From a virus (taxonomy: Duplodnaviria > Caudoviricetes): a DNA stretch of 32,590 nt. Of this stretch, positions 2 to 10,397 are shown one piece after another; position 1 is the stretch's first letter; each line of letters begins with the position of its first letter. Made by a program: the position numbers and the translations under genes. The stretch spans positions 1 to 32,590 of IMG/VR virus record IMGVR_UViG_3300020120_000177. One strand, written 5' to 3'. The notes below the pieces were generated by a model that was not told where the DNA came from, searched no databases, and saw only the letters and a program-made list of their open reading frames with translations.

Positions 2-301
2 GGGGCCGCCTGGGCCGCCTGGGCCGCCTGGGCCGCCGAGGCCGCCGAGGCCGCCGAGGCCGCCGAGGCCGCCTGGGCCGCCTGGGCCGCCTGGGCCGCC
101 GAGGCCGCCTGGGCCGCCGAGGCCGCCGGGGAAATCGACTGGTCCAAGGTCAAGACCATGGACTACTACGAGGCCAAGGAGTACTTCCGGCCGATCTTCC
201 GGCGCCACCTCGACGAGGCCCTCAAGGCCGAGATCGAGGCGTCGATCGCGGACACGATGGCGTGCCTCGACGCGATGCTCGACCTGCAGGTCGCGGCGTG
301 A
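2..301 (+). CDS. 5'-truncated phage protein with an Ala-Ala-Trp/Ala-Ala-Glu repeat tract
   Basis: Frame 2 is open: GAAWAAWAAWAAEAAE...GEIDWSKVKTMDYYEAKEYFRPIF...LQVAA*. The TGA at 299-301 overlaps the next GTG. Not in the ORF track because the start is outside the window. Confidence 0.8.
   Translation, partial: GAAWAAWAAWAAEAAEAAEAAEAAWAAWAAWAAEAAWAAEAAGEIDWSKVKTMDYYEAKEYFRPIFRRHLDEALKAEIEASIADTMACLDAMLDLQVAA
5..130 (+). repeat. 14 tandem 9-bp units GCCGCC(TGG/GAG/GGG)
   Basis: Read directly. Unit order by last codon is W W W E E E E W W W E W E G. Confidence 0.95.
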
Positions 302-789
302 TCCTCGCGATCGATCCGGGCTCCGAGCACTCGGCGTTCGTCGTGCTGAACCCAGCGACGGGCGGGCTTCGTTCGTTCGCGAAGATCCCGAACGAGGAGC
401 TCCTCGAGCAGCTCCGGACCGGCATCTCGCCCGAGGTCGACGTCGTCGTCATCGAGTGGATGCAGCCGCACGGCCGGCCGACGTCGCTCCAGGAGTTCGA
501 GACCCTCTACTGGATCGGCCGCTTCTCCGAGGCGGCCATCGGTGCGGGCTTCCGGGTCGAGCGCCTGGCGCGCGACGACGTGAAGTTCCACCTCACCGGC
601 CTGCGGGCGAAGGTCGGCGACGCGAACATCATCGCGGCGCTCATCGACCGCTACGGGGGGGTCGGCGGGCGCGCGGCCGCGGTCGGGACGAAGACGACGC
701 CGGGACCGCTCCACGGCGTGACGGCCGACATCTGGCAGGCGCTCGGCGTGGCCATCACGTGGTCCGACCAGCACGAGGAGGCCGCATGA
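298..789 (+). CDS. RuvC-like Holliday junction resolvase
   Basis: N-terminal ILAIDPG, VVVIE, and C-terminal ADIWQALGVA, typical of the RNase H/RuvC fold. GTGA-coupled start at 298. Confidence 0.8.
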   Translation: MILAIDPGSEHSAFVVLNPATGGLRSFAKIPNEELLEQLRTGISPEVDVVVIEWMQPHGRPTSLQEFETLYWIGRFSEAAIGAGFRVERLARDDVKFHLTGLRAKVGDANIIAALIDRYGGVGGRAAAVGTKTTPGPLHGVTADIWQALGVAITWSDQHEEAA

Positions 790-1271
790 CCCCGATCCGG
801 ACCCGCGCCTCGAACTTCGTCTACCGCGGGCCCACGCCGGACATCGGCGACGCCTGGGTCGAGCGCCAGCCGGCCGAGCGGGCGGTGATGCTGACGTGGA
901 AGCCGTCCGACGAGGAGCGCGCGGCCATCGCCGGCGGCGCGATGATCGAGCTCGGCATCTTCGGCATGGAGCCGATCCCGCCAGTCTCGGTCGGGGTCAG
1001 CCCGCACCGCGAGATCTCGGCCATGGGCGCGCACCTTCGCGACCTCGCCCTGGTCGAGCTCAAGAAGGTCAGCCACGGCCCGGGCAGCTTCCCGCCCGGT
1101 AGCTGGGTCATCAGCCCGGACGTGTGGGAGGACCTCCAGGCATCTGAGGCGCTCGATCCACCGGATGGCGTCCCGACACTGCTTGGGCGTCCGCTCCTCG
1201 TCGGATCGGATCTGGGCGAGTTGGCAGCCGGGACGATGTACTACAGCTCCGACCTCGGGGCGGGCCTGTGA
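786..1271 (+). CDS. Hypothetical protein: conserved-looking phage N-terminal domain plus a C-terminal segment resembling the HK97 capsid A-domain
   Basis: ATGA overlap with SD GAGGAGG upstream. WKPSDEERAAIAGGA..PPVSV, then WVISPDVWEDL...PTLLGRPLLV. Confidence 0.7.
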   Translation: MTPIRTRASNFVYRGPTPDIGDAWVERQPAERAVMLTWKPSDEERAAIAGGAMIELGIFGMEPIPPVSVGVSPHREISAMGAHLRDLALVELKKVSHGPGSFPPGSWVISPDVWEDLQASEALDPPDGVPTLLGRPLLVGSDLGELAAGTMYYSSDLGAGL

Positions 1272-1873
1272 AGCTCTACGTCGCGTCGTCCTGGCGGAAC
1301 GCCCACCAGCCGGGCATCGTCGCGGATCTCCGCGAGCTCGGGCACGAGGTCTATGACTTCCGCCACCCGCCGGGCGGCGAGCACCTCGGGTTCAGCTGGT
1401 CCGACGTCGACCGCGACTGGGTCAGCTGGTCGCCCGAGCAGTACCGGGACGGGCTCGAGCATCCAATCGCCGTCGCCGGGTTCGAGTCGGACTTCGGCGC
1501 GATGCAATGGGCCGACGGCTGCGTCCTCGTGCTTCCGTGCGGCCGCTCGGCGCACCTCGAGGCCGGCTGGTTCGTCGGCGCCGGCAAGCCGCTGTGGATC
1601 CTGCTCGACCCGGGTGAGTTCGGCGTCGACGCCGGCCACCACGTCACCGAGCTCATGTATCGAATGGCCACCGGCGTCTGCACCGGCCTCGACGAGCTCG
1701 TCGACGCGATCGCGGCTCATCGGTGCGCGTACTGCAAAGGCCGGCGCTGGGTCAACGACGAGAACTGGCAGCCCGACGACCCCCGCGATCCACGCCGTTC
1801 GCCGCATGACGGGCTTCTCCCCTGCGACGGCTGCAACTTCGCCGGCTGGGACACCGCGGAGTGGGCGGCGTGA
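1268..1873 (+). CDS. Nucleoside 2-deoxyribosyltransferase-like protein with a C-terminal Zn ribbon
   Basis: KLYVASSWRN; DFGAMQWADGCVLVLPCGRSAHLEAGWFVGAGKP; C-terminal CAYC...CDGC. Confidence 0.75.
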   Translation: MKLYVASSWRNAHQPGIVADLRELGHEVYDFRHPPGGEHLGFSWSDVDRDWVSWSPEQYRDGLEHPIAVAGFESDFGAMQWADGCVLVLPCGRSAHLEAGWFVGAGKPLWILLDPGEFGVDAGHHVTELMYRMATGVCTGLDELVDAIAAHRCAYCKGRRWVNDENWQPDDPRDPRRSPHDGLLPCDGCNFAGWDTAEWAA

Positions 1874-2085
1874 CCGCCGATCGACCGCTGACGCCGGCCC
1901 AGCAGCGCCGGTGCGACAAGGAGCTCGCCCAGCTCGAGCGCGACATCGCGGACCTCGAGGCGACGACACACCTCCTGATGACGAGCGCGCTGCTGCGCGA
2001 TGGCCACGCCGAAACCTGGAACGAGGCGTCGAAGCTGGCGCGCGATCTGCCGCGAGTCCGTGAGCTCTACGGGATCGAGCCGTGA
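1870..2085 (+). CDS. Hypothetical coiled-coil protein
   Basis: GTGA-coupled at both ends; helical sequence. Confidence 0.65.
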   Translation: MTADRPLTPAQQRRCDKELAQLERDIADLEATTHLLMTSALLRDGHAETWNEASKLARDLPRVRELYGIEP

Positions 2086-3788
2086 CCCCGGTCCTGAGCG
2101 CCGAGATCATCGCGAACCACGTAGGCATCCTGGGCAAGACCGGATCCGGCAAGAGCAACCTCGCGAAGGTCATCGCCGAGCAGCTGCTGGCCGCCGGCGA
2201 GCGCGTGGTCGTCCTCGATCCGACGGGCACCTGGTATGGCCTCCGGCTGACGCGGGCGCGGAAGCCGAGCCCGTTCAAGGTCGTGATCTTCGGCGGGGCC
2301 CATGGCGACATCCCGATCGCCGCTCACCACGGCGAGGAAATCGCCGCGGCGCTGGCTCGCTCGTCGACGAGCGCGATCATCGACACGCGCCAGCTCACGG
2401 TGAAGGGCCGGACGACGTTCGCGACCGGCTTCGCCGAGACGCTCCTGCAGCGCAACGTCGGCGTGCTCTACGTCATCGTCGACGAGGCGCATCTCTTCGC
2501 GCCGCAGGGCAAGGTGCCGGATCCGGACGCCGGCAAGATGCTCCACGCCTGGAACAACCTCGCGAGCCTCGGCCGGGGCGTCGGGCTCGTCCTCATCCTC
2601 ATCAGTCAGCGGCCCGCGAAGCTCCACAAGGACTCGCTGACCCAGATCGAGACGCTGATTGCCATGCGGCTGATCGGCCCGCAGGACCGTGCCGCGATCC
2701 GTGAGTGGATCCGCGAGTCCGCCGACGAGGCGCAGGGCGCCGAGATCATGCGCTCGCTGGTGTCGCTGCCGACCGGCACTGGCTGGGTGTGGTCGCCGGC
2801 ACTCGACGTCCTCGAGAAGCGCTCGTTCCCGCTCGCGTCGACGCTCGACACCGGAACGCCCTCGGCCGCGCCGGATGTCGTCCTCGGGCCCATCGACGTC
2901 GACGCCATCCGCGCCCAGCTCGGAAAGGTCGAAGAGGAGCGCAAGGCGAACGACCCGACCGAGCTTCGGAAGCAGATCGCAGCGCTCAAGCATCAGCTCG
3001 AGCAGCGCCCGACCGAGCAGGTCGTCGAGACCGTCGAGAAGATCGTCGAGATCCCGGTCCTCAATGGTCAGGTCCACGAGCTCACGGCCCGGGCGCGCGA
3101 CCTGCAGGCCCTCAGCGCGTCGATCGCGCTGACGAGCCAAGAGATCCTCGCGGCCATCGACCGTGTTCAGCAGACCCCAACCAGGGAGCGGGAGGAGCGA
3201 GCGCCAAGGGGTGTGCCGGCTGTACCGGCCCGCGGCCGCGGCGACACTGCGGTGGCAACGCTCGCACCGGCGGCTCCGCGCCGTGATCCCGCTCCCGCTT
3301 CGCCCGCTCCCGCTTCGCCCGATTGTGACCCGAAGACCCTGACCAAAGTCCAGCGAGCGGTCCTGAGCGTCCTCGCGCACTTCCCCGAGGGCCGCAGCCC
3401 GAAGCAGATCGCGGTGATGACCGGCTACGCGGTGGGCGGGTCGACGATGCGCACCACGATCGGAGGGCTCCGAACAGCGGGCTTTGCGACGCCTGCAGGG
3501 ATCGAGCCCGTCCAGATCACCGCTGCGGGCCGCGAGGCGCTGGGCGACTACGAGCCGCTCCCCACGGGGCCTGACCTCGCCGCGTACTGGATGGGCCAGC
3601 TGCCGGCCGGAGCGCGAAACGTGCTCCAGGCGCTCCTCGCGGCCCATCCGCGAACTCTCGACCAGCTGGCGCTCGCCGAGATAACGGGATACGCCGCAGG
3701 TGGTTCGACGATGCGGACGGCGCTCGGCCGGCTGCGGACGCTCGAGCTCATCGACGGGTTCACCGTCAGTCCAGAGCTGCTCGCATGA
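2082..3788 (+). CDS. HerA/FtsK-like (DUF87-type) P-loop ATPase with a coiled coil and two C-terminal winged-helix-like repeats
   Basis: HVGILGKTGSGKS (Walker A), VLDPTG, VIVDEAHLFAPQ (Walker B), GRGVG, ISQRPA; duplicated TGYAxGGSTMRT. Confidence 0.85.
   Translation: MTPVLSAEIIANHVGILGKTGSGKSNLAKVIAEQLLAAGERVVVLDPTGTWYGLRLTRARKPSPFKVVIFGGAHGDIPIAAHHGEEIAAALARSSTSAIIDTRQLTVKGRTTFATGFAETLLQRNVGVLYVIVDEAHLFAPQGKVPDPDAGKMLHAWNNLASLGRGVGLVLILISQRPAKLHKDSLTQIETLIAMRLIGPQDRAAIREWIRESADEAQGAEIMRSLVSLPTGTGWVWSPALDVLEKRSFPLASTLDTGTPSAAPDVVLGPIDVDAIRAQLGKVEEERKANDPTELRKQIAALKHQLEQRPTEQVVETVEKIVEIPVLNGQVHELTARARDLQALSASIALTSQEILAAIDRVQQTPTREREERAPRGVPAVPARGRGDTAVATLAPAAPRRDPAPASPAPASPDCDPKTLTKVQRAVLSVLAHFPEGRSPKQIAVMTGYAVGGSTMRTTIGGLRTAGFATPAGIEPVQITAAGREALGDYEPLPTGPDLAAYWMGQLPAGARNVLQALLAAHPRTLDQLALAEITGYAAGGSTMRTALGRLRTLELIDGFTVSPELLA
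3288..3321 (+). repeat. 15-bp tandem duplication CCCGCTCCCGCTTCG (PAPAS x2) in the ATPase linker
   Basis: Read directly at 3288-3302 and 3303-3317. Confidence 0.85.
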
Positions 3789-4270
3789 ACGGTCTGCTCC
3801 TCGACGACGGCGCTTGGCGGCGCGCGCTGGACGGCGATCCGGAGGGCCTCGCGATCTACCGGCGCCACTACTCCCGCCGGCGCTATCGCGATGGTCGGCA
3901 GCCGCGGCTGTTCGTCGGGCCCGGCGAGAAGCAGGTCCTCGTCTCGCACGATGGTCGCGCCCTGTTCGTCTGGCGGAGGTTCGTCGACGACGCCGGCCAG
4001 GAGGGCGTCAACTGCGCGGCGTTCCGGAACGAGGGCGCCGGCCTGAGCTCGAGCCTCATCGCGGAGGCGATGGCGATCGCGTGGGCGCGCTGGCCGGGCG
4101 AGCGGCTGTACACGTACGTCGACGCCGCTGAGGTTCGGAGCTCGAACCCGGGCTATTGCTTCCTGGTCGCAGGTTGGCGTCCGGCCGGCTGGACTCGGGG
4201 GGGGCACGGCCGACGATCGCTCAGGATCCTCGAGGCGCTCCCGGCGTGGTTCGCCGAGGCGGCCGCATGA
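3785..4270 (+). CDS. Mom-like (GNAT-fold) putative DNA-modification protein
   Basis: RRHYS near the N-terminus; SSSLI; LYTYVD...NPGYCFLVAGW, resembling the Mom-family TY-D...G..y.aAgW motif. Adjacent to a methyltransferase. Confidence 0.6.
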   Translation: MNGLLLDDGAWRRALDGDPEGLAIYRRHYSRRRYRDGRQPRLFVGPGEKQVLVSHDGRALFVWRRFVDDAGQEGVNCAAFRNEGAGLSSSLIAEAMAIAWARWPGERLYTYVDAAEVRSSNPGYCFLVAGWRPAGWTRGGHGRRSLRILEALPAWFAEAAA

Positions 4271-5334
4271 GCATCGTCATCGCCGACGAGTGGATGACCG
4301 TCCATCACGGCGACGCCCGGGCCGTCCTGCCGACCCTGGAGCCCGAGTCGATCGACGCGTGCGTCACGAGCCCGCCGTACTGGCGCCAGCGGTCGTACTT
4401 GGCGGCCGACGATCCGCTCAAACCACTCGAGCTTGGGTCAGAGGAGACGTTCGACGAGTGGGTCGCGAACCTCGTCGAGGTCTGTGCCGGGATCCGCCGC
4501 GTCCTGAAGCCCGCCGGCTCGCTGTGGCTCGTCCTGGGCGATCGCTTTGTGGCCAACGGCGACCCGTACGCACACCCGGCCGTCAACCGCTCGGCCTTCC
4601 ACGCTGGCGCGTTCGCTCGCCACGTGCCGGCGCGCAAGGGGATCCAGGGCTTCCCACCTGGTCTCCGCCGGAAGAGCCTCCTGCTCGCCCCGTATCGACT
4701 CGCGATCGCGCTGTGCGAGGACGGCTGGATCCTCCGCGATCGCGTCGTGTGGGCGAAGACCAACGGCCTCCCCGAGAGCGTCCAGGACCGGCTGCACGTC
4801 CGCGACGAGGTCATCTTCCGGTTCACGCTGCGCGAGCGCGCCTACTTCGACGTCGACGCGATCCGCGAGCCCTACGCGATCGCCTCGATCGTCCGGGCCC
4901 AGCCTGGCCGGGCGGCCACATTCGCCGGCGCGAAGCACGCCGCGCCTGGGCAGCCGCCACGGACCCCGAAGGTCTGGACGGGAGACGAGGGCGATCGCCA
5001 TCGCGTCGAGTGGATGCGTGTGGGTCGCGTCCGGACCGGCAAGAAGGTTCCTGGCAAGAACCCGGGCAACGTCTGGCCGGTGGCTACGGCGGCCGGAGGC
5101 GGCTCGCCCTACGCCCACTTCGCGATGTTCCCGAAGGCGCTCGTTCGCCGGCCCATCCTCGCGACGGTGCCCGTCGGCGGCGTTGTGCTGGATCCGTTCG
5201 CCGGCACGGGGACCACGGCCGAGGTTGCGAACGAGCACCTCCGGCGCGCCGTCCTCATCGAGCTCGATCCAGCGTCGATTGAGCACATCCGGATCCGCAC
5301 GCAGCGGCGCCCGATCGTTGAGGTCCCGGCGTGA
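4267..5334 (+). CDS. DNA N4-cytosine/N6-adenine methyltransferase, beta class
   Basis: Motif IV VTSPPY comes before HFAMFP and motif I VLDPFAGTGTT; ATGA-coupled start. Confidence 0.92.
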   Translation: MSIVIADEWMTVHHGDARAVLPTLEPESIDACVTSPPYWRQRSYLAADDPLKPLELGSEETFDEWVANLVEVCAGIRRVLKPAGSLWLVLGDRFVANGDPYAHPAVNRSAFHAGAFARHVPARKGIQGFPPGLRRKSLLLAPYRLAIALCEDGWILRDRVVWAKTNGLPESVQDRLHVRDEVIFRFTLRERAYFDVDAIREPYAIASIVRAQPGRAATFAGAKHAAPGQPPRTPKVWTGDEGDRHRVEWMRVGRVRTGKKVPGKNPGNVWPVATAAGGGSPYAHFAMFPKALVRRPILATVPVGGVVLDPFAGTGTTAEVANEHLRRAVLIELDPASIEHIRIRTQRRPIVEVPA

Positions 5335-5495
5335 CGAAGCGCCTCGCGATCGCCGCGGCCCTCGGCTTCATCGGCGGCGTCGTCACCATGGCCCAGGTCC
5401 TCGATCGCCTCCTCGGCGGCCAAGGGATCCGGATCCGGGTCCGCCACGAGCACCCGACCCTCGACGACGAGCCTGGTGGCGGGTGGCAGTCGTGA
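5331..5495 (+). CDS. Small protein (54 aa) with an N-terminal hydrophobic helix
   Basis: MTKRLAIAAALGFIGGVVTMAQVLDRLLGGQG...; GTGA overlaps at both ends; below the ORF-track cutoff. Confidence 0.65.
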   Translation: MTKRLAIAAALGFIGGVVTMAQVLDRLLGGQGIRIRVRHEHPTLDDEPGGGWQS

Positions 5496-5776
5496 GCTTG
5501 GATCGGATCACCGGCCTCCGCATCCGGACCAGCCTGTTGGGCAGCGGCTCGTCGCTGGAGTTCGTTGACCAGGTGCCGGTCCGCTTCGAGACGCGCCCCA
5601 ACGACGACGGCACGATCGACGAGGTGCTCGTCTACGCCGGCGATCGCTGCTTGCTCCATCTCGAGCAGTTGGGCAAGGACCACTACTGGTTCGCGTGGTA
5701 CGGGGACGGCCCCGATGCCGAGCGGCACTTCAACATCGCCCGTCGCAAGAAGCGGGTCGAGATCACCGAGCGATGA
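5492..5776 (+). CDS. Hypothetical protein
   Basis: MSLDRITGLRIRTS...DGTIDEV...LHLEQLGKDHYWFAWY; coupled start and stop. Confidence 0.7.
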   Translation: MSLDRITGLRIRTSLLGSGSSLEFVDQVPVRFETRPNDDGTIDEVLVYAGDRCLLHLEQLGKDHYWFAWYGDGPDAERHFNIARRKKRVEITER

Positions 5777-5973
5777 GCGGTCGGTTCGAGCGCCTGCACC
5801 GTGAGCCTCGCCGGCTGACCGACGGCGAGAAGCTCCGGATCACGCTCGCTGGCGCCGCGCTGCTGATTGCCCTCGAGCTCTGGTGGGGCGAGCGCCTGGG
5901 ATTCGGGCTCGGACTCGTCGCCGGCTGGGTTCTCGCCGAGCTCAACCGCTGGTTGGAGCGGCGTGGTGGCTGA
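5773..5973 (+). CDS. Small membrane protein (2 TM)
   Basis: ITLAGAALLIALELWW and LGFGLGLVAGWVLAEL; ATGA-coupled. Confidence 0.7.
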   Translation: MSGRFERLHREPRRLTDGEKLRITLAGAALLIALELWWGERLGFGLGLVAGWVLAELNRWLERRGG

Positions 5974-6124
5974 GACGCGCGGCCGCTCTCTCAGCCGCCT
6001 CGAGCTCGTCCTCCTGCGAGCCCTCGAGGAAGCAGCCGAGGCGCGCCGTCGACGATCAATCGAGCGGGCCGAGCGGCGTGCGAAGATGACGGTCGTGGCG
6101 GGCGGTAGGAGGAGCGCGGCATGA
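5966..6124 (+). CDS. Small basic helical protein
   Basis: MAETRGRSLSRLELVLLRALEEAAEARRRRS...; fills the gap and its stop overlaps the next ATG. Confidence 0.55.
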   Translation: MAETRGRSLSRLELVLLRALEEAAEARRRRSIERAERRAKMTVVAGGRRSAA

Positions 6125-6375
6125 TGTGGGCCGCTGACGGCGCGTTCTGGCAGCGCTTCCTGCTGTGGTCGATCGACCCCGCCGCTCAGGCCACCTACTC
6201 GATGGCGCGTCTCGGCCGACAAATGCGCCGAGCGGCCGCCGCGATCGCTGCGTTCGGTGTCTCGATCGCGGACCTCGAGCCCGCGTTTCGGCGAATGGCC
6301 GACGGCCTGCCGATCACCGCGGCCGACGCGACCGCCCACCTGAGTCGCCCTGACGATCGACAGCCTCGAGCTTGA
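6121..6375 (+). CDS. Hypothetical protein
   Basis: Strong SD AGGAGGAG; coupled to the recombinase start. Confidence 0.65.
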   Translation: MMWAADGAFWQRFLLWSIDPAAQATYSMARLGRQMRRAAAAIAAFGVSIADLEPAFRRMADGLPITAADATAHLSRPDDRQPRA

Positions 6376-7925
6376 TGCGTCTGCCGCGCTCCCTCGACGA
6401 GCTCCAAGGCCTCCGCGCCGCGCGCTGGATCCGCGAGTCGACGGCGGGCCAGGCTGATCGGTTCGGGCCCGATGCCCAACGCGATCACCAGGACCGGGCG
6501 ATCGAGCGCTACGGCCTCGTCGACACCGGGCTCGCTTGGCAGGTCGCCCACTCCGGCCGGACGATCGCGACGACGTCGCAGTGGGCGGAGATGCTCGCTG
6601 GCGCCGGGCGCAGCTGGGACGTCCTCGTCGTCGGGTACGTCAGTCGCTTCGCCCGCGACCTCCGGACCGCGGTCAACGCCCGCCACGACCTGCACGCCGC
6701 CGGCGCCGCGATCCTGTTCGCCGACGAGCGCCTGCTGACAAGCGACGAGGAGGCGTGGGAGGGCTGGGCTCGGGAGGCGGTCGAGGCAGAGGCGTACTCT
6801 AGGCGGCTTGGCAAGCGGATCCGCGAGGGCTACGCCGCGAAGCGCCGGCGGCTCGCGGATCCCGGCGGCCACCCGCCGTTCGGCTTCCGGCGCTCCGGCC
6901 AGGACCACGTCCTCGAGCCCGTGGCAGAAACCGCTCACATTGTGAGCAGGGCCTTCCAGCTGGCCGCCGCCGGTGAGCCTGACCGGGCGATCGCCGGTGA
7001 GCTCGGGATCGGCCTCTACACGGTCCGCGAGATGCTCCGGTCGCCGCTCTATGTCGGCCGTCTGCGCGATGGCACCGCGGCGCGATACGAGGCGCCCGTC
7101 GACGAGGCCCTCTGGGAGCAGGTCCAGGAGCTTCGCGATCGCCGGCACACGCGCTCCGGCCGGCCTGGCAAGGCCCGGACGTATGCGCTGTCGATGCTCC
7201 GCTGCGGCGCGTGCGGCCGGCGGCTCCATGGCGACACGGGGCGGTACCGACACCCCGACGTCTGCCCGGAGTTCGCCGCGGCCGCGCCGGCGCTCAAGCG
7301 TCGAGCTCGTGGCCAGCATCGGACGCCGCTCGGTCGGAGCTACCCGGCGGACGTCTACGAGGGCGCGTTCCGGGCGATGCTGGCGAAGGTGTCGCTCGGC
7401 GCCGATGCGGTGGCCCGCCTTGTCGCGGCGACCCGCGAGCCCGAGCCAGATCGCCTGATGCTCGCCCGGCTCGAGCGCGAACGCGATGCCGCCCTGGCCC
7501 GGTACCGGAAGGATCGCGACCAGGTCGCGCTCACCGCGGCGATGGCGAGGATCGATGCCGCCGAGCACGCGGCGCGGAACGCTCCGGCCACGCCGGCGTT
7601 GACCGCGGCCGAGGTGCGGGCCTACCTCACGAACCTGCCGGCGCTCTGGGACGACGCGCCGAACCAGCGTCGCGCGCTGAGTGAAGCCCTCGCCCAGCAG
7701 ATCGAGGTCATCGGGATCCGCACCATCCGGGTGACGCCGACGCCCGAGGCGATCGAGAGAGGCTTCGTGGAGGCATTCCGAACGGGAACAGTTGGGAATG
7801 GTCGGGGCGAGAGGCGTGGAGCCCTCGATTCCCGGCTGATCCTGTCCATCGTACCCGGGGTTGAGACGCGCCTGTCCGTCGTCCTCCCGCGGCGCGCGCC
7901 GCTCCGAATCCTGCGGTCCGCATGA
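6372..7925 (+). CDS. int: Large serine recombinase (integrase)
   Basis: Catalytic WIRESTAGQ, HSGR, SRFARD; recombinase domain GGHPPFGF...LRSPLYVG...APVDEALWEQVQ; Zn ribbon LRCGACGRRLHG; coiled coil. Start is TTG 6372 or ATG 6375. Confidence 0.93.
   Translation: MMRLPRSLDELQGLRAARWIRESTAGQADRFGPDAQRDHQDRAIERYGLVDTGLAWQVAHSGRTIATTSQWAEMLAGAGRSWDVLVVGYVSRFARDLRTAVNARHDLHAAGAAILFADERLLTSDEEAWEGWAREAVEAEAYSRRLGKRIREGYAAKRRRLADPGGHPPFGFRRSGQDHVLEPVAETAHIVSRAFQLAAAGEPDRAIAGELGIGLYTVREMLRSPLYVGRLRDGTAARYEAPVDEALWEQVQELRDRRHTRSGRPGKARTYALSMLRCGACGRRLHGDTGRYRHPDVCPEFAAAAPALKRRARGQHRTPLGRSYPADVYEGAFRAMLAKVSLGADAVARLVAATREPEPDRLMLARLERERDAALARYRKDRDQVALTAAMARIDAAEHAARNAPATPALTAAEVRAYLTNLPALWDDAPNQRRALSEALAQQIEVIGIRTIRVTPTPEAIERGFVEAFRTGTVGNGRGERRGALDSRLILSIVPGVETRLSVVLPRRAPLRILRSA
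7782..7845. other. Putative attP inside int; crossover at GG 7813-7814; targets the 3' end of a tRNA-Pro gene
   Basis: Arms 7782-7799 and 7828-7845 are inverted repeats (14/18) centred at 7813.5. The - strand of 7799-7814 reads CCTCTCGCCCCGACCA: T-stem 3' strand, acceptor strand, discriminator A and CCA. Confidence 0.8.
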
Positions 7926-8266
7926 CCCCTCGCCGGATCCAGCGCCAACGCACTCGCGGCTGGCGGATGCCCGAGAACACGATCTACGTCGGCCGCCCGA
8001 CCATCTACGGCAACCCGTGGCCGCTCGACGTCTACCGGCGCGAGTTCGCCTACTACTTCGCCGACGAGGACGAGCTCCGCCGGTATGCGCTCCGCGAATA
8101 CCGCGGCTGGATCACCGGCGAAATCCAGGCCAAGCTGCCGATGCTCGAACTCCCGGAGCGGCCCGATCTCACGCCGCTCCGCGGTCGCAACCTCGCGTGC
8201 TGGTGCCCAGACGGGCAGCCCTGCCACGCCGACATCCTGCTCGAGCTGGCCAACCGGGCCGCGTGA
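7922..8266 (+). CDS. DUF4326-family protein
   Basis: IYVGRPTIYGNPW ... LRGRNLACWC...PCHADILLELAN. Confidence 0.88.
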   Translation: MTPRRIQRQRTRGWRMPENTIYVGRPTIYGNPWPLDVYRREFAYYFADEDELRRYALREYRGWITGEIQAKLPMLELPERPDLTPLRGRNLACWCPDGQPCHADILLELANRAA

Positions 8267-8496
8267 CGCTCGTGGCCCGAGACAGGCACCAGCCCTGGCG
8301 AGGGGCCCGTCTCCCCGTGCGGCCACCGAAGGCCGCGGTCGAATGCTGGCGGTGCTCCGAAGACCGCCGGCGGCTGTACACGATCCCGATCGGTCGGCCC
8401 GGCCACGGGATCGGGACGATCGACGTGTGCGGCCCATGTCTCGCGACGATCACGCCGCTCCCACCTGACCCGCTCGACGTGCAAACCACCGCCTGA
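8263..8496 (+). CDS. Small Zn-finger protein
   Basis: CWRC...CGPC; GTGA-coupled; last gene before the intergenic gap, a position where late regulators often lie. Confidence 0.65.
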   Translation: MTLVARDRHQPWRGARLPVRPPKAAVECWRCSEDRRRLYTIPIGRPGHGIGTIDVCGPCLATITPLPPDPLDVQTTA

Positions 8497-8517
8497 CACG
8501 AGGTTGTAGGGCCTCCT

Positions 8518-8558
8518 CCGACGCCGGTTGCTTGACAACGTCGGCGATAAGGTGGCGG
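8518..8558 (+). promoter_or_regulatory. Candidate late/lysis promoter region
   Basis: TAAGGT (8548-8553) as -10. TTGACA (8532-8537) lies only 10 nt upstream, a non-canonical spacing. Inverted repeat CCGACG (8518-8523)/CGTCGG (8539-8544). Confidence 0.4.
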
Positions 8559-8669
8559 ATGGCCGGGCGGACCCCTCTCCTCGACGCCTCGGGTGCCGGC
8601 GGCGCCTTCCTCCTCGGCGCCGCCGGCCGCATCTCCTACCGGACTTACCCGGGCGCCGGCATCTCTTGA
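8559..8669 (+). CDS. Possible leaderless 36-aa leader peptide abutting the first lysis gene
   Basis: ATG lies 5 nt after TAAGGT. MAGRTPLLDASGAGGAFLLGAAGRISYRTYPGAGIS*. TGA is directly followed by GTG 8670, which has no SD. Confidence 0.35.
   Translation: MAGRTPLLDASGAGGAFLLGAAGRISYRTYPGAGIS
8595..8627. other. Perfect 12-bp GC hairpin with loop TTCCTCCTC
   Basis: GCCGGCGGCGCC / GGCGCCGCCGGC; no U-tract. Confidence 0.8.
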
Positions 8670-8876
8670 GTGCCCAGCCCTGATGCGATCGACGCCTTCC
8701 TGCGCCTGGGTGTCGCGGGCCTCCTCGCCGTCGGGCTCATCGCGTTCGTCCTGGAGATCGTCGTCAGCGGTCGGGCCTACCGGCGTGTCCTGGCTGAACG
8801 AGATGCGGCCTACCAGCGCCTCAGCCGATTCATCGACGTCGTCGAGGCGGCGACCGGCGTCAGGCCGCCGCCATGA
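8670..8876 (+). CDS. Membrane protein (1 TM plus coiled coil), lysis block
   Basis: LGVAGLLAVGLIAFVLEIVVSG followed by a charged helix. Confidence 0.7.
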   Translation: MPSPDAIDAFLRLGVAGLLAVGLIAFVLEIVVSGRAYRRVLAERDAAYQRLSRFIDVVEAATGVRPPP

Positions 8877-9082
8877 GCTGGCTGCGTAGGGTGATGGCGC
8901 TGATCGAGCGGAAGCCGCCTGACCTCGGGAGTGTGGTTCCAGTGGACCCCTACCAGGCGCATCTGCTCGAGCAGGCCGACGCGATGCTCCGGCACCCGAC
9001 GATCCGGAAGCTCGAGCTCAGCCGCCAGGAGGCGATGCGGGCCTCGTTCCGGCGCGCTAATCAGCGCCTGGCCGACCGATGA
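8873..9082 (+). CDS. Hypothetical protein, lysis block
   Basis: ATGA overlaps at both ends. Confidence 0.7.
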   Translation: MSWLRRVMALIERKPPDLGSVVPVDPYQAHLLEQADAMLRHPTIRKLELSRQEAMRASFRRANQRLADR

Positions 9083-9399
9083 GCCTGCCCGACGTCCTGC
9101 TGAACGCGGCCGCGGCCTTGATCTTCCTCGACGTCCCGGTGGCGATCATCCTCGTCCGGGCCGCGCTCCGAAAGCCGCACATCACAGCGCTGACGCTCAT
9201 GGCCGTGGCGTCGTGGGGAATCGCGATCCTCATCAGCGCGTACGTCTTCGCCGCGCTGAACGCGGTCGCCGGCTACCCGGTGCCGAAGGAGACCGCCCAG
9301 ATCGGCTTCCGCCTGGCCGCGGTCGTCCTCGCGATCTTCCCGCCGCTGTTCCTGCTCGCCTACCTCCGCGGGTGGTTCCGCGACGGGCAGAAGTCATGA
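9079..9399 (+). CDS. 3-TM membrane protein, putative holin or lysis accessory
   Basis: Three hydrophobic segments and a basic C-terminus; immediately upstream of the peptidase. Confidence 0.65.
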   Translation: MSLPDVLLNAAAALIFLDVPVAIILVRAALRKPHITALTLMAVASWGIAILISAYVFAALNAVAGYPVPKETAQIGFRLAAVVLAIFPPLFLLAYLRGWFRDGQKS

Positions 9400-10397
9400 C
9401 CCTGAACGAGGACGAGACGATGACCACCGACCAGCTGCCCGGCCTGGGCGGCCAATACGACCCCGCCCTGCATGTCGCCGACTGGCCAATTTCCGACCTG
9501 TTCGCGGCCGCAGGCCTGCCGCCCGCCGCCGCCTTCCCGGCAAGCTTCCGCGTCGGCACGATGCCGTCGGTCCTGAACCAGGGCACGACCCCGCAGTGCG
9601 TGGCCTTCTCCGGGTCCGCGATCAAGGGCCACGAGGACCGGCTCGACCAGGGCGAGTTCTTCAACTTCGACGAGGCCAAGTTCTTCGGCGAGATCGGCGG
9701 CGGCCCGAACGGCGCGTACATCTCGAACGCCCTGGCCCGGGTCAAGAACTACGGCTACCCGGTCGTCAGCGTCGGCCAGGAGGGCCAGCACAAGGCCGCG
9801 GCCTACTACAGCGTCCCGCTGACCGTCGCCGACCTGAAGGCCGCGATCACCGCCTTCGGCCCGCTGTGGTGCATCGGCGAGTGGAAGAACAGCTGGTTCC
9901 GGCCCGGCGCGAACGGCGTCCTGCCGGCGCCGTCGACCGTCGCCGGCGGCCACGCGACCGTCATGTACGGCTGGGACGACGCGCTCGGCGGGTTCCGGTT
10001 CCGGAACAGCTGGGGCGCCGGCTGGGGCGCATCGGGCGACTTCATCCTGCCGTACAAGTACCTGACCGCCGCGGCGAACGGTGGCTACCTGTGGGGCGCC
10101 TGGAAGCTCACCGACGCGATCGAGTACTCGCCCCGCACGCTGGCCTGCGGCGCCCAGATCCGGCCGGACGCCCACTTCGGGGCCTCGCTCGGCACGATCG
10201 CTGTCGGCGCCCACATCGGAGTCTCGGGCAAGGTCGCCGGCTCGACCTGGTCGAAGACCTCGAGCTGCAACCCCAGCGTGCCGAACTCCGGCACCAGCTG
10301 GTACGTCGTCCGCACGATCGGCGGGGTGGCGGTCAGCGTCCGGTTCCCCGGGCACGCGGCCGTCTACGTGTACGCCGGCGCAATCCAGGGAGGCTGA
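9396..10397 (+). CDS. Papain-like (C1A) cysteine peptidase with an extra C-terminal domain; putative lysin
   Basis: NQGTTPQCVAFS (Cys 9597-9599), GGHATVMYGWDD (His 9951-9953), FRNSWGAGWG (Asn 10005-10007). No signal peptide. Start is ATG 9396 or 9420. Confidence 0.85.
   Translation: MTLNEDETMTTDQLPGLGGQYDPALHVADWPISDLFAAAGLPPAAAFPASFRVGTMPSVLNQGTTPQCVAFSGSAIKGHEDRLDQGEFFNFDEAKFFGEIGGGPNGAYISNALARVKNYGYPVVSVGQEGQHKAAAYYSVPLTVADLKAAITAFGPLWCIGEWKNSWFRPGANGVLPAPSTVAGGHATVMYGWDDALGGFRFRNSWGAGWGASGDFILPYKYLTAAANGGYLWGAWKLTDAIEYSPRTLACGAQIRPDAHFGASLGTIAVGAHIGVSGKVAGSTWSKTSSCNPSVPNSGTSWYVVRTIGGVAVSVRFPGHAAVYVYAGAIQGG

Follow-up and report, generated by a model that had tools for sequence, protein, structure and literature searches.

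Introduction

It is already known that the attachment site of an element (attP) can lie inside the gene of a serine integrase. This arrangement has been published for three groups, Goe14, DsiB and the integrases of the rumA-targeting ICEs, whereas the original prediction for the locus described here had cited precedents only among tyrosine integrases and the BPs repressor. Goe14 (bioRxiv 10.1101/2021.11.22.469490) is, like the phage described here, a tailed phage with attP in the coding sequence for the C-terminus of its serine integrase, which is truncated on integration. It targets a protein gene, spoVK, with the loss of 131 aa, and no equivalent of sprB was seen; its authors speculate that the long and short forms together replace a recombination directionality factor (RDF). 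Unlike in Goe14, integration of the present phage would restore its target, a tRNA, and remove 36 aa whose end is conserved, and the phage has an RDF candidate.

DsiB of the ssrA islands of Dehalococcoides (PMC3146451) also belongs to Chloroflexota; the 3' end of this serine recombinase gene overlaps an att site that lies antisense to the gene of a structural RNA, and the elements form tandem arrays, as is the case here. It differs in that the target is tmRNA, the elements are islands and not phages, and a second recombinase, DsiA, is present. Its authors mention possible regulation; they saw divergent C-termini and described no conserved tail of a free form. Single serine integrases of streptococcal ICEs that target rumA (PMC4701971) likewise have att inside int and a C-terminus altered by integration, but they belong to ICEs and enter a protein gene with reciprocal 3' exchange. 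The integrase of myxophage Mx8 (PMC4701971, PMC6070905) also carries attP inside int and changes from a long to a short C-terminus; unlike the enzyme described here, it is of the tyrosine family, 112 aa are replaced by 13, and the change in activity has been shown experimentally. In the integration-dependent immunity of BPs and Brujita (PMC3694055), integration removes a C-terminal degradation tag, which is the logic proposed below. There, attP lies in the repressor gene, the integrase keeps a tag of its own and the switch operates without xis, whereas attP of the present phage lies in int.

Three papers raise the question of whether serine integrases that split their own gene employ the long and short forms as a means of control, and the integrases described here make this question testable, because they provide a precise attP, attB, attL and attR, a 50-aa RDF candidate, and a short tail whose conserved end can be mutated. 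They also offer tRNA-restoring integrases for uncultured Chloroflexota. A search of titles and abstract starts, with most subscription journals outside its range, gave no paper that treats either the tail or serine integrases of Limnocylindria with a tRNA-Pro target.

Genome Setting and Integrase

The DNA analyzed (the window) is a virus record of 32.6 kb (32,590 nucleotides) with 70% GC from a tailed soil phage; it is a linear contig and probably incomplete. To the right of the attachment site are genes of terminase, portal, scaffold, capsid and tape-measure proteins, and to the left are RusA-like, deoxyribosyltransferase and HerA-like genes. A tRNA gene scan of the 32.6 kb gave none, and repressor matches were absent among the ORFs scanned in this probably incomplete contig. 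Tandem 9-bp units occupy the contig start (1-130).

The gene at 6375..7925 (+ strand) encodes the free-phage form, 516 aa, of a large serine integrase, which consists of a catalytic region with S22, a recombinase domain, a zinc-ribbon domain with a coiled coil and a 36-aa tail. It was assigned by matches to Resolvase (PF00239, E 7e-11), to Recombinase (PF07508, E 1.7e-5, at the family cut-off of Pfam) and to phrog_95 (E 5.8e-45). The catalytic motifs are RES22 and SRFAR (90-94); S22 is nearly invariant across 35 homologues, in which C277, C280 and C297 are invariant. Long helices at 360-402 are found in the AlphaFold model, for which Foldseek gave 37 matches with E<=0.001, led by serine integrases, the best being solved serine-integrase complexes including those of Bxb1 and phiC31. 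The zinc-ribbon domain alone gave weak matches (best E 0.064), the top eight of which are all integrases. When the protein was used as a single query, no loci were obtained from IMG/VR, and only distant matches (<=28%) from GenBank phages. Sigma-70 promoter or terminator consensus sequences were not found in 5200-9500.

The Attachment Site Within the Integrase Gene

On the minus strand, 7799-7814 has the sequence CCTCTCGCCCCGACCA. As had been predicted, this is the 3' end of a tRNA-Pro: the block is the last 16 nt of the host tRNA-Pro(CGG), comprising the T-stem 3' strand, the acceptor strand, A73 and CCA, and it is identical to the tRNA end at the 22 integrase-tRNA junctions described in the next section. 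The 16-mer is the sole match in the window even when two mismatches are allowed (chance mean 0.21), and 7675-7908 is covered with zero differences by an independent contig that comes from another soil study. The site is in frame within the 516-aa ORF, R480 being encoded by 7812-7814 and followed by 36 residues. The left arm (P, 7782..7812), with an outer motif at about 15-30 bp from the centre, lies in the integrase body and matches in inverted orientation the right arm (P', 7815..7845), which also provides the first codons of the tail.

The inverted repeat of 7782-7799 with 7828-7845 (14/18, centre 7813.5) agrees in coordinates and letters with the original prediction. By itself it was rejected as proof of attP, because 24 centres in the window alone have 14/18 inverted repeats with spacers of 10-44 nt; the GG-centred score of 20/36 is reached by 66 of the 32,250 window centres. 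The significance of the site rests on its relatives. When centres were scanned over 15 viral sites, symmetry peaked at GG with 17.7/36, against <=13.7 at 48 other centres, and was strongest at 16-29 bp from the centre; tRNA junctions gave 10.9/36 in the same scan. Among 65 distinct right arms, 22 depart from the tRNA sequence directly after GG and 35 one base further on (57/65 in total). From this dyad symmetry and the end of the tRNA identity, the crossover is predicted at GG 7813-7814 (C61-C62 of the tRNA), the dinucleotide that had been proposed from the window alone.

The tRNA arm fits the P arms best at an inward shift of 6 bp (5.4 of 13 for 58 left arms and 5.3 of 13 for 65 right arms; other shifts <=4.4), and at this shift 8/13 is obtained on both P arms of the window. 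For the SPbeta and LI integrases, PMC11722253 places the outer DBD2 motif of attB 4-5 bp nearer to the centre than that of attP, compared with the 6-bp attB shift here.

Integrated and Free Copies in Relatives

The alignment search gave 77 loci, of which 24 are viral and 53 are from genomes, the latter being nearly all Chloroflexota and several named Limnocylindrales. At 22 junctions among these loci, the int body continues, in antisense, into an intact tRNA-Pro(CGG) gene from its 3' end; the hosts or elements are Chloroflexota (Limnocylindria), and host tRNA-Pro genes ending in the 16-mer, proposed at the outset as a check, are thus found. With ATT TGA as the antisense reading of the T-loop, 16 of the 22 integrases end in GRGERI followed by the stop codon, whereas four in the other frame (MVGARG) run on for 38-40 residues and two are frameshifted. 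The lysogen form of the window phage is therefore expected to be a truncated protein of 481 aa with one added residue. The original prediction that the C-terminus is rewritten is retained as to the restored tRNA, the loss of the last 36 residues and the existence of two forms in homologues, whereas a long antisense-tRNA tail after GRGER was not found, the 38-40-residue tail being restricted to the four relatives in the other frame. Read across the junction sequences, the constant feature is loss of the tail and not its replacement.

In 80 metagenome loci, 14 of which lack the C-end and 15 of which show no core by pattern, there are 16 distinct junctions: 14 with Pro-CGG, one with Pro-GGG and one with Arg-TCT. 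All 36 protein homologues contain the motif region; seven end in GRGERI, two in GRGERT, and 22 have a tail of 20-38 aa, while five of the 36 read the motif DNA in the MVGARG frame. Five virus records were checked, and the three with direct terminal repeats each have one core, inside int and followed by the tail; of the other two, a provirus ends at the core and a linear record ends in the tRNA. With these three records and the 22 junctions, the predicted location of attP inside the serine integrase gene and its tRNA-Pro target are confirmed in relatives, and almost certainly attP of the window phage lies within the 3' end of int and integration truncates the protein.

The complete prophage in G008 has two cores 47.9 kb apart, with int and the tRNA at one end. 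At the far end are found, in order, host DNA, a core, an in-frame tail ending in VRSA, an HTH gene, and genes of endolysin, terminase and portal; once rejoined, its attP arms match at 19/36. Most of 18 adjacent-site pairs within loci likewise rejoin to in-frame tails, and their outer arms match at 10.1 of 24 for cognate pairs against 8.0 for shuffled pairs (permutation p 3e-5, for pairs that are not independent and include several near-copies). Five host genomes carry 2-11 tRNA-Pro cores each, often in tandem, and hybrids are therefore produced, in which one integrase body is joined to the tail of another element (L011 and L016). It should be noted that genome mining recovers integrases in their truncated form, and that integrases taken from tandem arrays carry the tail of another element. 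For the window phage itself, joints or loose ends at 7813-7814 were absent among the matches listed from four soil runs; since the contigs there are shallow, a missing junction is no evidence against integration.

The 36-aa Tail

The tail found only in the free form (residues 481-516; 7815..7925, + strand) consists of a linker, a predicted beta-hairpin (487-502) and a flexible end, LRILRSA; it is absent from integrated copies and is found in frame at their far ends. The ending [S/T]A is shared by 18 of 22 homologue tails. Among DNA-defined free forms it occurs in 16/33, compared with 9/430 long background ORFs, counts that are inflated by kin; the set of 33 includes two failed frame calls and two hybrids as misses, and two viral loci at contig ends were dropped. 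R[S/T]A also ends the tail in 6 of 7 relatives with a tRNA-Arg-type core. Other endings are LVG, in 4 of 14 viral forms, and RAG, RIA and GAG; among metagenome junctions without a tRNA, many of which are tandem hybrids, only 8/26 end in [S/T]A.

The tail end lies beyond the att arm, at a distance of about 90-110 bp from the crossover. Each of the four Ala codons occurs at the [S/T]A ends (11/6/6/7) and an SD-like word is present in 5/30, which argues that the tail end has been selected as protein; the same 5/30 led us to reject a Shine-Dalgarno sequence as the source of the RSA ending. An RTGA stop/start overlap, found in 17 of the 30 [S/T]A tails, can account in part for the terminal Ala. On a quick tree (frame labels assigned by pattern; 3 of 58 rows unlabelled), the reading frame through the core switched at least four times, and both frames reach RSA. 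The middle parts of the tails vary widely in sequence, in length (20-38 aa) and in frame, in contrast to the convergent last residues, and the first ten or so tail codons are constrained as attP DNA.

The hairpin 487-502 is ordered in both AlphaFold runs (pLDDT 76-92; domain pTM 0.75), with a flexible linker, and the last tail residues are of low confidence, as would be expected in these models for a flexible tag. The tail may resemble the ClpX-binding peptide of SspB, a likeness that is given no weight in the argument for a tag. The ssrA tag of the hosts ends in ALAA in three of five tmRNAs read, to which the RSA end is not identical. The C-terminal degron motifs of ssrA and MuA listed in PMC8138137 do not include RSA; these rules are for Escherichia coli and the hosts here are Chloroflexota. 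Separately, five left-arm ORFs of the window within 262-8266 (RusA-like, deoxyribosyltransferase, 3785-4270, a small ORF and DUF4326) and the capsid gene end in AA, for which tags and stop/start overlap are alternative explanations.

A Candidate Directionality Factor Upstream

While the original prediction recognized no RDF, phages and islands carry a conserved small helical ORF a short way upstream of int, with the family consensus DPxVxALAxAVRD and a length of about 50 aa. The window member (5966..6124, + strand; about 52 aa, ending RRSAA) was identified by the family alignment and by a held-out profile: when its own copy was left out, 5966-6124 was the best match in the window, but a weak one (E 0.018). 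The profile, built from 39 loci, matches 54 of 61 loci with upstream DNA when the training set is included, and 7/61 are without a match. It also matches 29 of 67 metagenome loci, a few of which repeat earlier loci, and gave no match in the other 38/67; all 29 matches are on the sense strand and 25 end within 40 nt of the int start. Pfam and Atlas gave no match to the small ORF. The RDF of SPbeta is a protein of 58 aa acting through one helix (PMC11722253). We regard the product of 5966-6124 as a candidate RDF. An 84-aa ORF at 6121-6375 lies between this ORF and int, overlapping both, and has no homologue in the fetched loci.

The Gene Downstream of the Tail

A DUF4326 gene (7922..8266, + strand) begins with an ATG that overlaps the integrase stop codon (ATGA), and integration would sever it from the upstream operon. 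In most related free phages, the int stop overlaps or abuts the next start. Matches to HTH domains with E<=0.01 were found in 9 of 12 chosen downstream ORFs, including that of the G008 prophage; the ORFs scanned were from 11 of 16 listed viral loci and from L088. A small HTH gene resembling LuxR or sigma region 4 is coupled to the tail stop in L003, L008-L010, L013, L014, L022 and L024 and in L088 (2405-2785), and is possibly a late-gene activator that would be cut from the early operon on integration. Further downstream in the window are a small ORF with two CxxC pairs (8263-8496) and then, preceding the lysis genes, a TTGACA hexamer in the middle of an imperfect inverted repeat (8518-8547), which together may form a late control region.

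Proposed Mechanism and Alternatives

The site, its target, the two gene forms and the conserved tail end are read directly from the sequences, and the explanation that we prefer for them, with a probability of roughly 45%, is that the lost tail is a removable C-terminal protease tag. By recombination of attP with the host tRNA-Pro(CGG) at GG 7813-7814, the tRNA would be restored and the integrase reduced from 516 to 481 residues (ending GRGERI), and the prophage would encode only this untagged form, with all catalytic and DNA-binding domains retained. Since a lone prophage has only the short form and this form keeps every domain, the short form is likely to excise, and we infer that the tail is dispensable for excision. 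On induction, accumulation of the untagged integrase would lead to excision of the phage, probably with the small helical protein acting as RDF; excision would rejoin the tail, new integrase would be short-lived, and re-integration would be limited. On infection, integration would hinge on escape from Clp-type proteolysis of the host. The same cut would detach the coupled downstream gene from its operon. This logic is that of the BPs repressor, from which integration removes a tag (PMC3694055), here applied to the integrase.

The broadest form of the proposal, a Chloroflexota-wide clade of tRNA-targeting serine integrases whose degron tail is lost on integration and regained on excision, so that the enzyme is stable only when integrated, while a tiny helical RDF sets the direction and the cut silences a downstream regulator, is doubtful as a whole; it would place a switch between lysis and lysogeny inside the integrase gene.

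Two other explanations are live and are not mutually exclusive. According to one, the main rival, which we consider unlikely, the tail is a structural element of directionality or activity: the hairpin packs on the zinc-ribbon domain, and integration falls to the long form, whereas the short form carries out excision or has lower activity, whether or not an RDF takes part. The original prediction and the Goe14 preprint both put forward this idea. The hairpin modeled as ordered in both AlphaFold runs suggests such a function, a hydrophobic strand-like stretch is seen by eye in most tails, the short form of the Mx8 integrase is less active (PMC4701971), and the title of one cited paper puts the extreme C-terminus of SprA in a directionality switch. 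However, a structural role does not sit well with tail middles that vary in sequence, length and frame while the last residues converge, with first codons constrained as attP DNA, or with the presence of a separate conserved RDF candidate. According to the other, somewhat less likely again, the enzyme is indifferent to the tail and the frame across attP only carries translation to the downstream gene, the operon break that silences a late regulator being the real switch. The overlapping or abutting starts in most free phages, the HTH matches in 9/12 chosen downstream ORFs and the several early window ORFs that end in Ala at such overlaps are in line with this explanation, but the window carries DUF4326 and no HTH gene at that position, non-phage islands retain the same tail ending, and neither the variety of codons nor the Ser/Thr and Arg that precede Ala is explained by overlap.

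It is very improbable that the window site is a chance match or a hybrid junction of tandem elements in place of a free-phage attP. Arrays and hybrids of the kind described above are common, and the window is a linear and probably incomplete contig; against this, its arm symmetry is at the level of cognate pairs (15/24 outer bp), its tail is homologous to those of its closest homologues, its gene order (RusA-like upstream; lysis and packaging downstream) is that of other phages, and an independent contig covers the site.

Tandem Arrays and Other Targets

Two arrays illustrate the crowding of tRNA-Pro cores, with eight in 57 kb at G010:C1:1672098-1729597 and five in 27 kb at G006:C11:676930-703968; both contain hybrid integrases with a foreign tail in or out of frame. 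Cores of tRNA-Arg type were found in seven relatives in the same register, and five of them agree with host tRNA-Arg ends either fully or with a single mismatch. A host tRNA-Arg at L098:1501-1576 was called with the anticodon GCG, which is uncommon for tRNA-Arg in bacteria. The integrases of L156, L159, L160, L164, L167, L172 and L179 end in VGDTGFEPVTSRM before the stop codon, which resembles the antisense of a third tRNA, presumably that for Val. In L120, L132, L142, L116, L119 and L131, a second core-like stretch is found in frame upstream of GRGER, together with a longer C-terminus, and may be what remains of a former att site.
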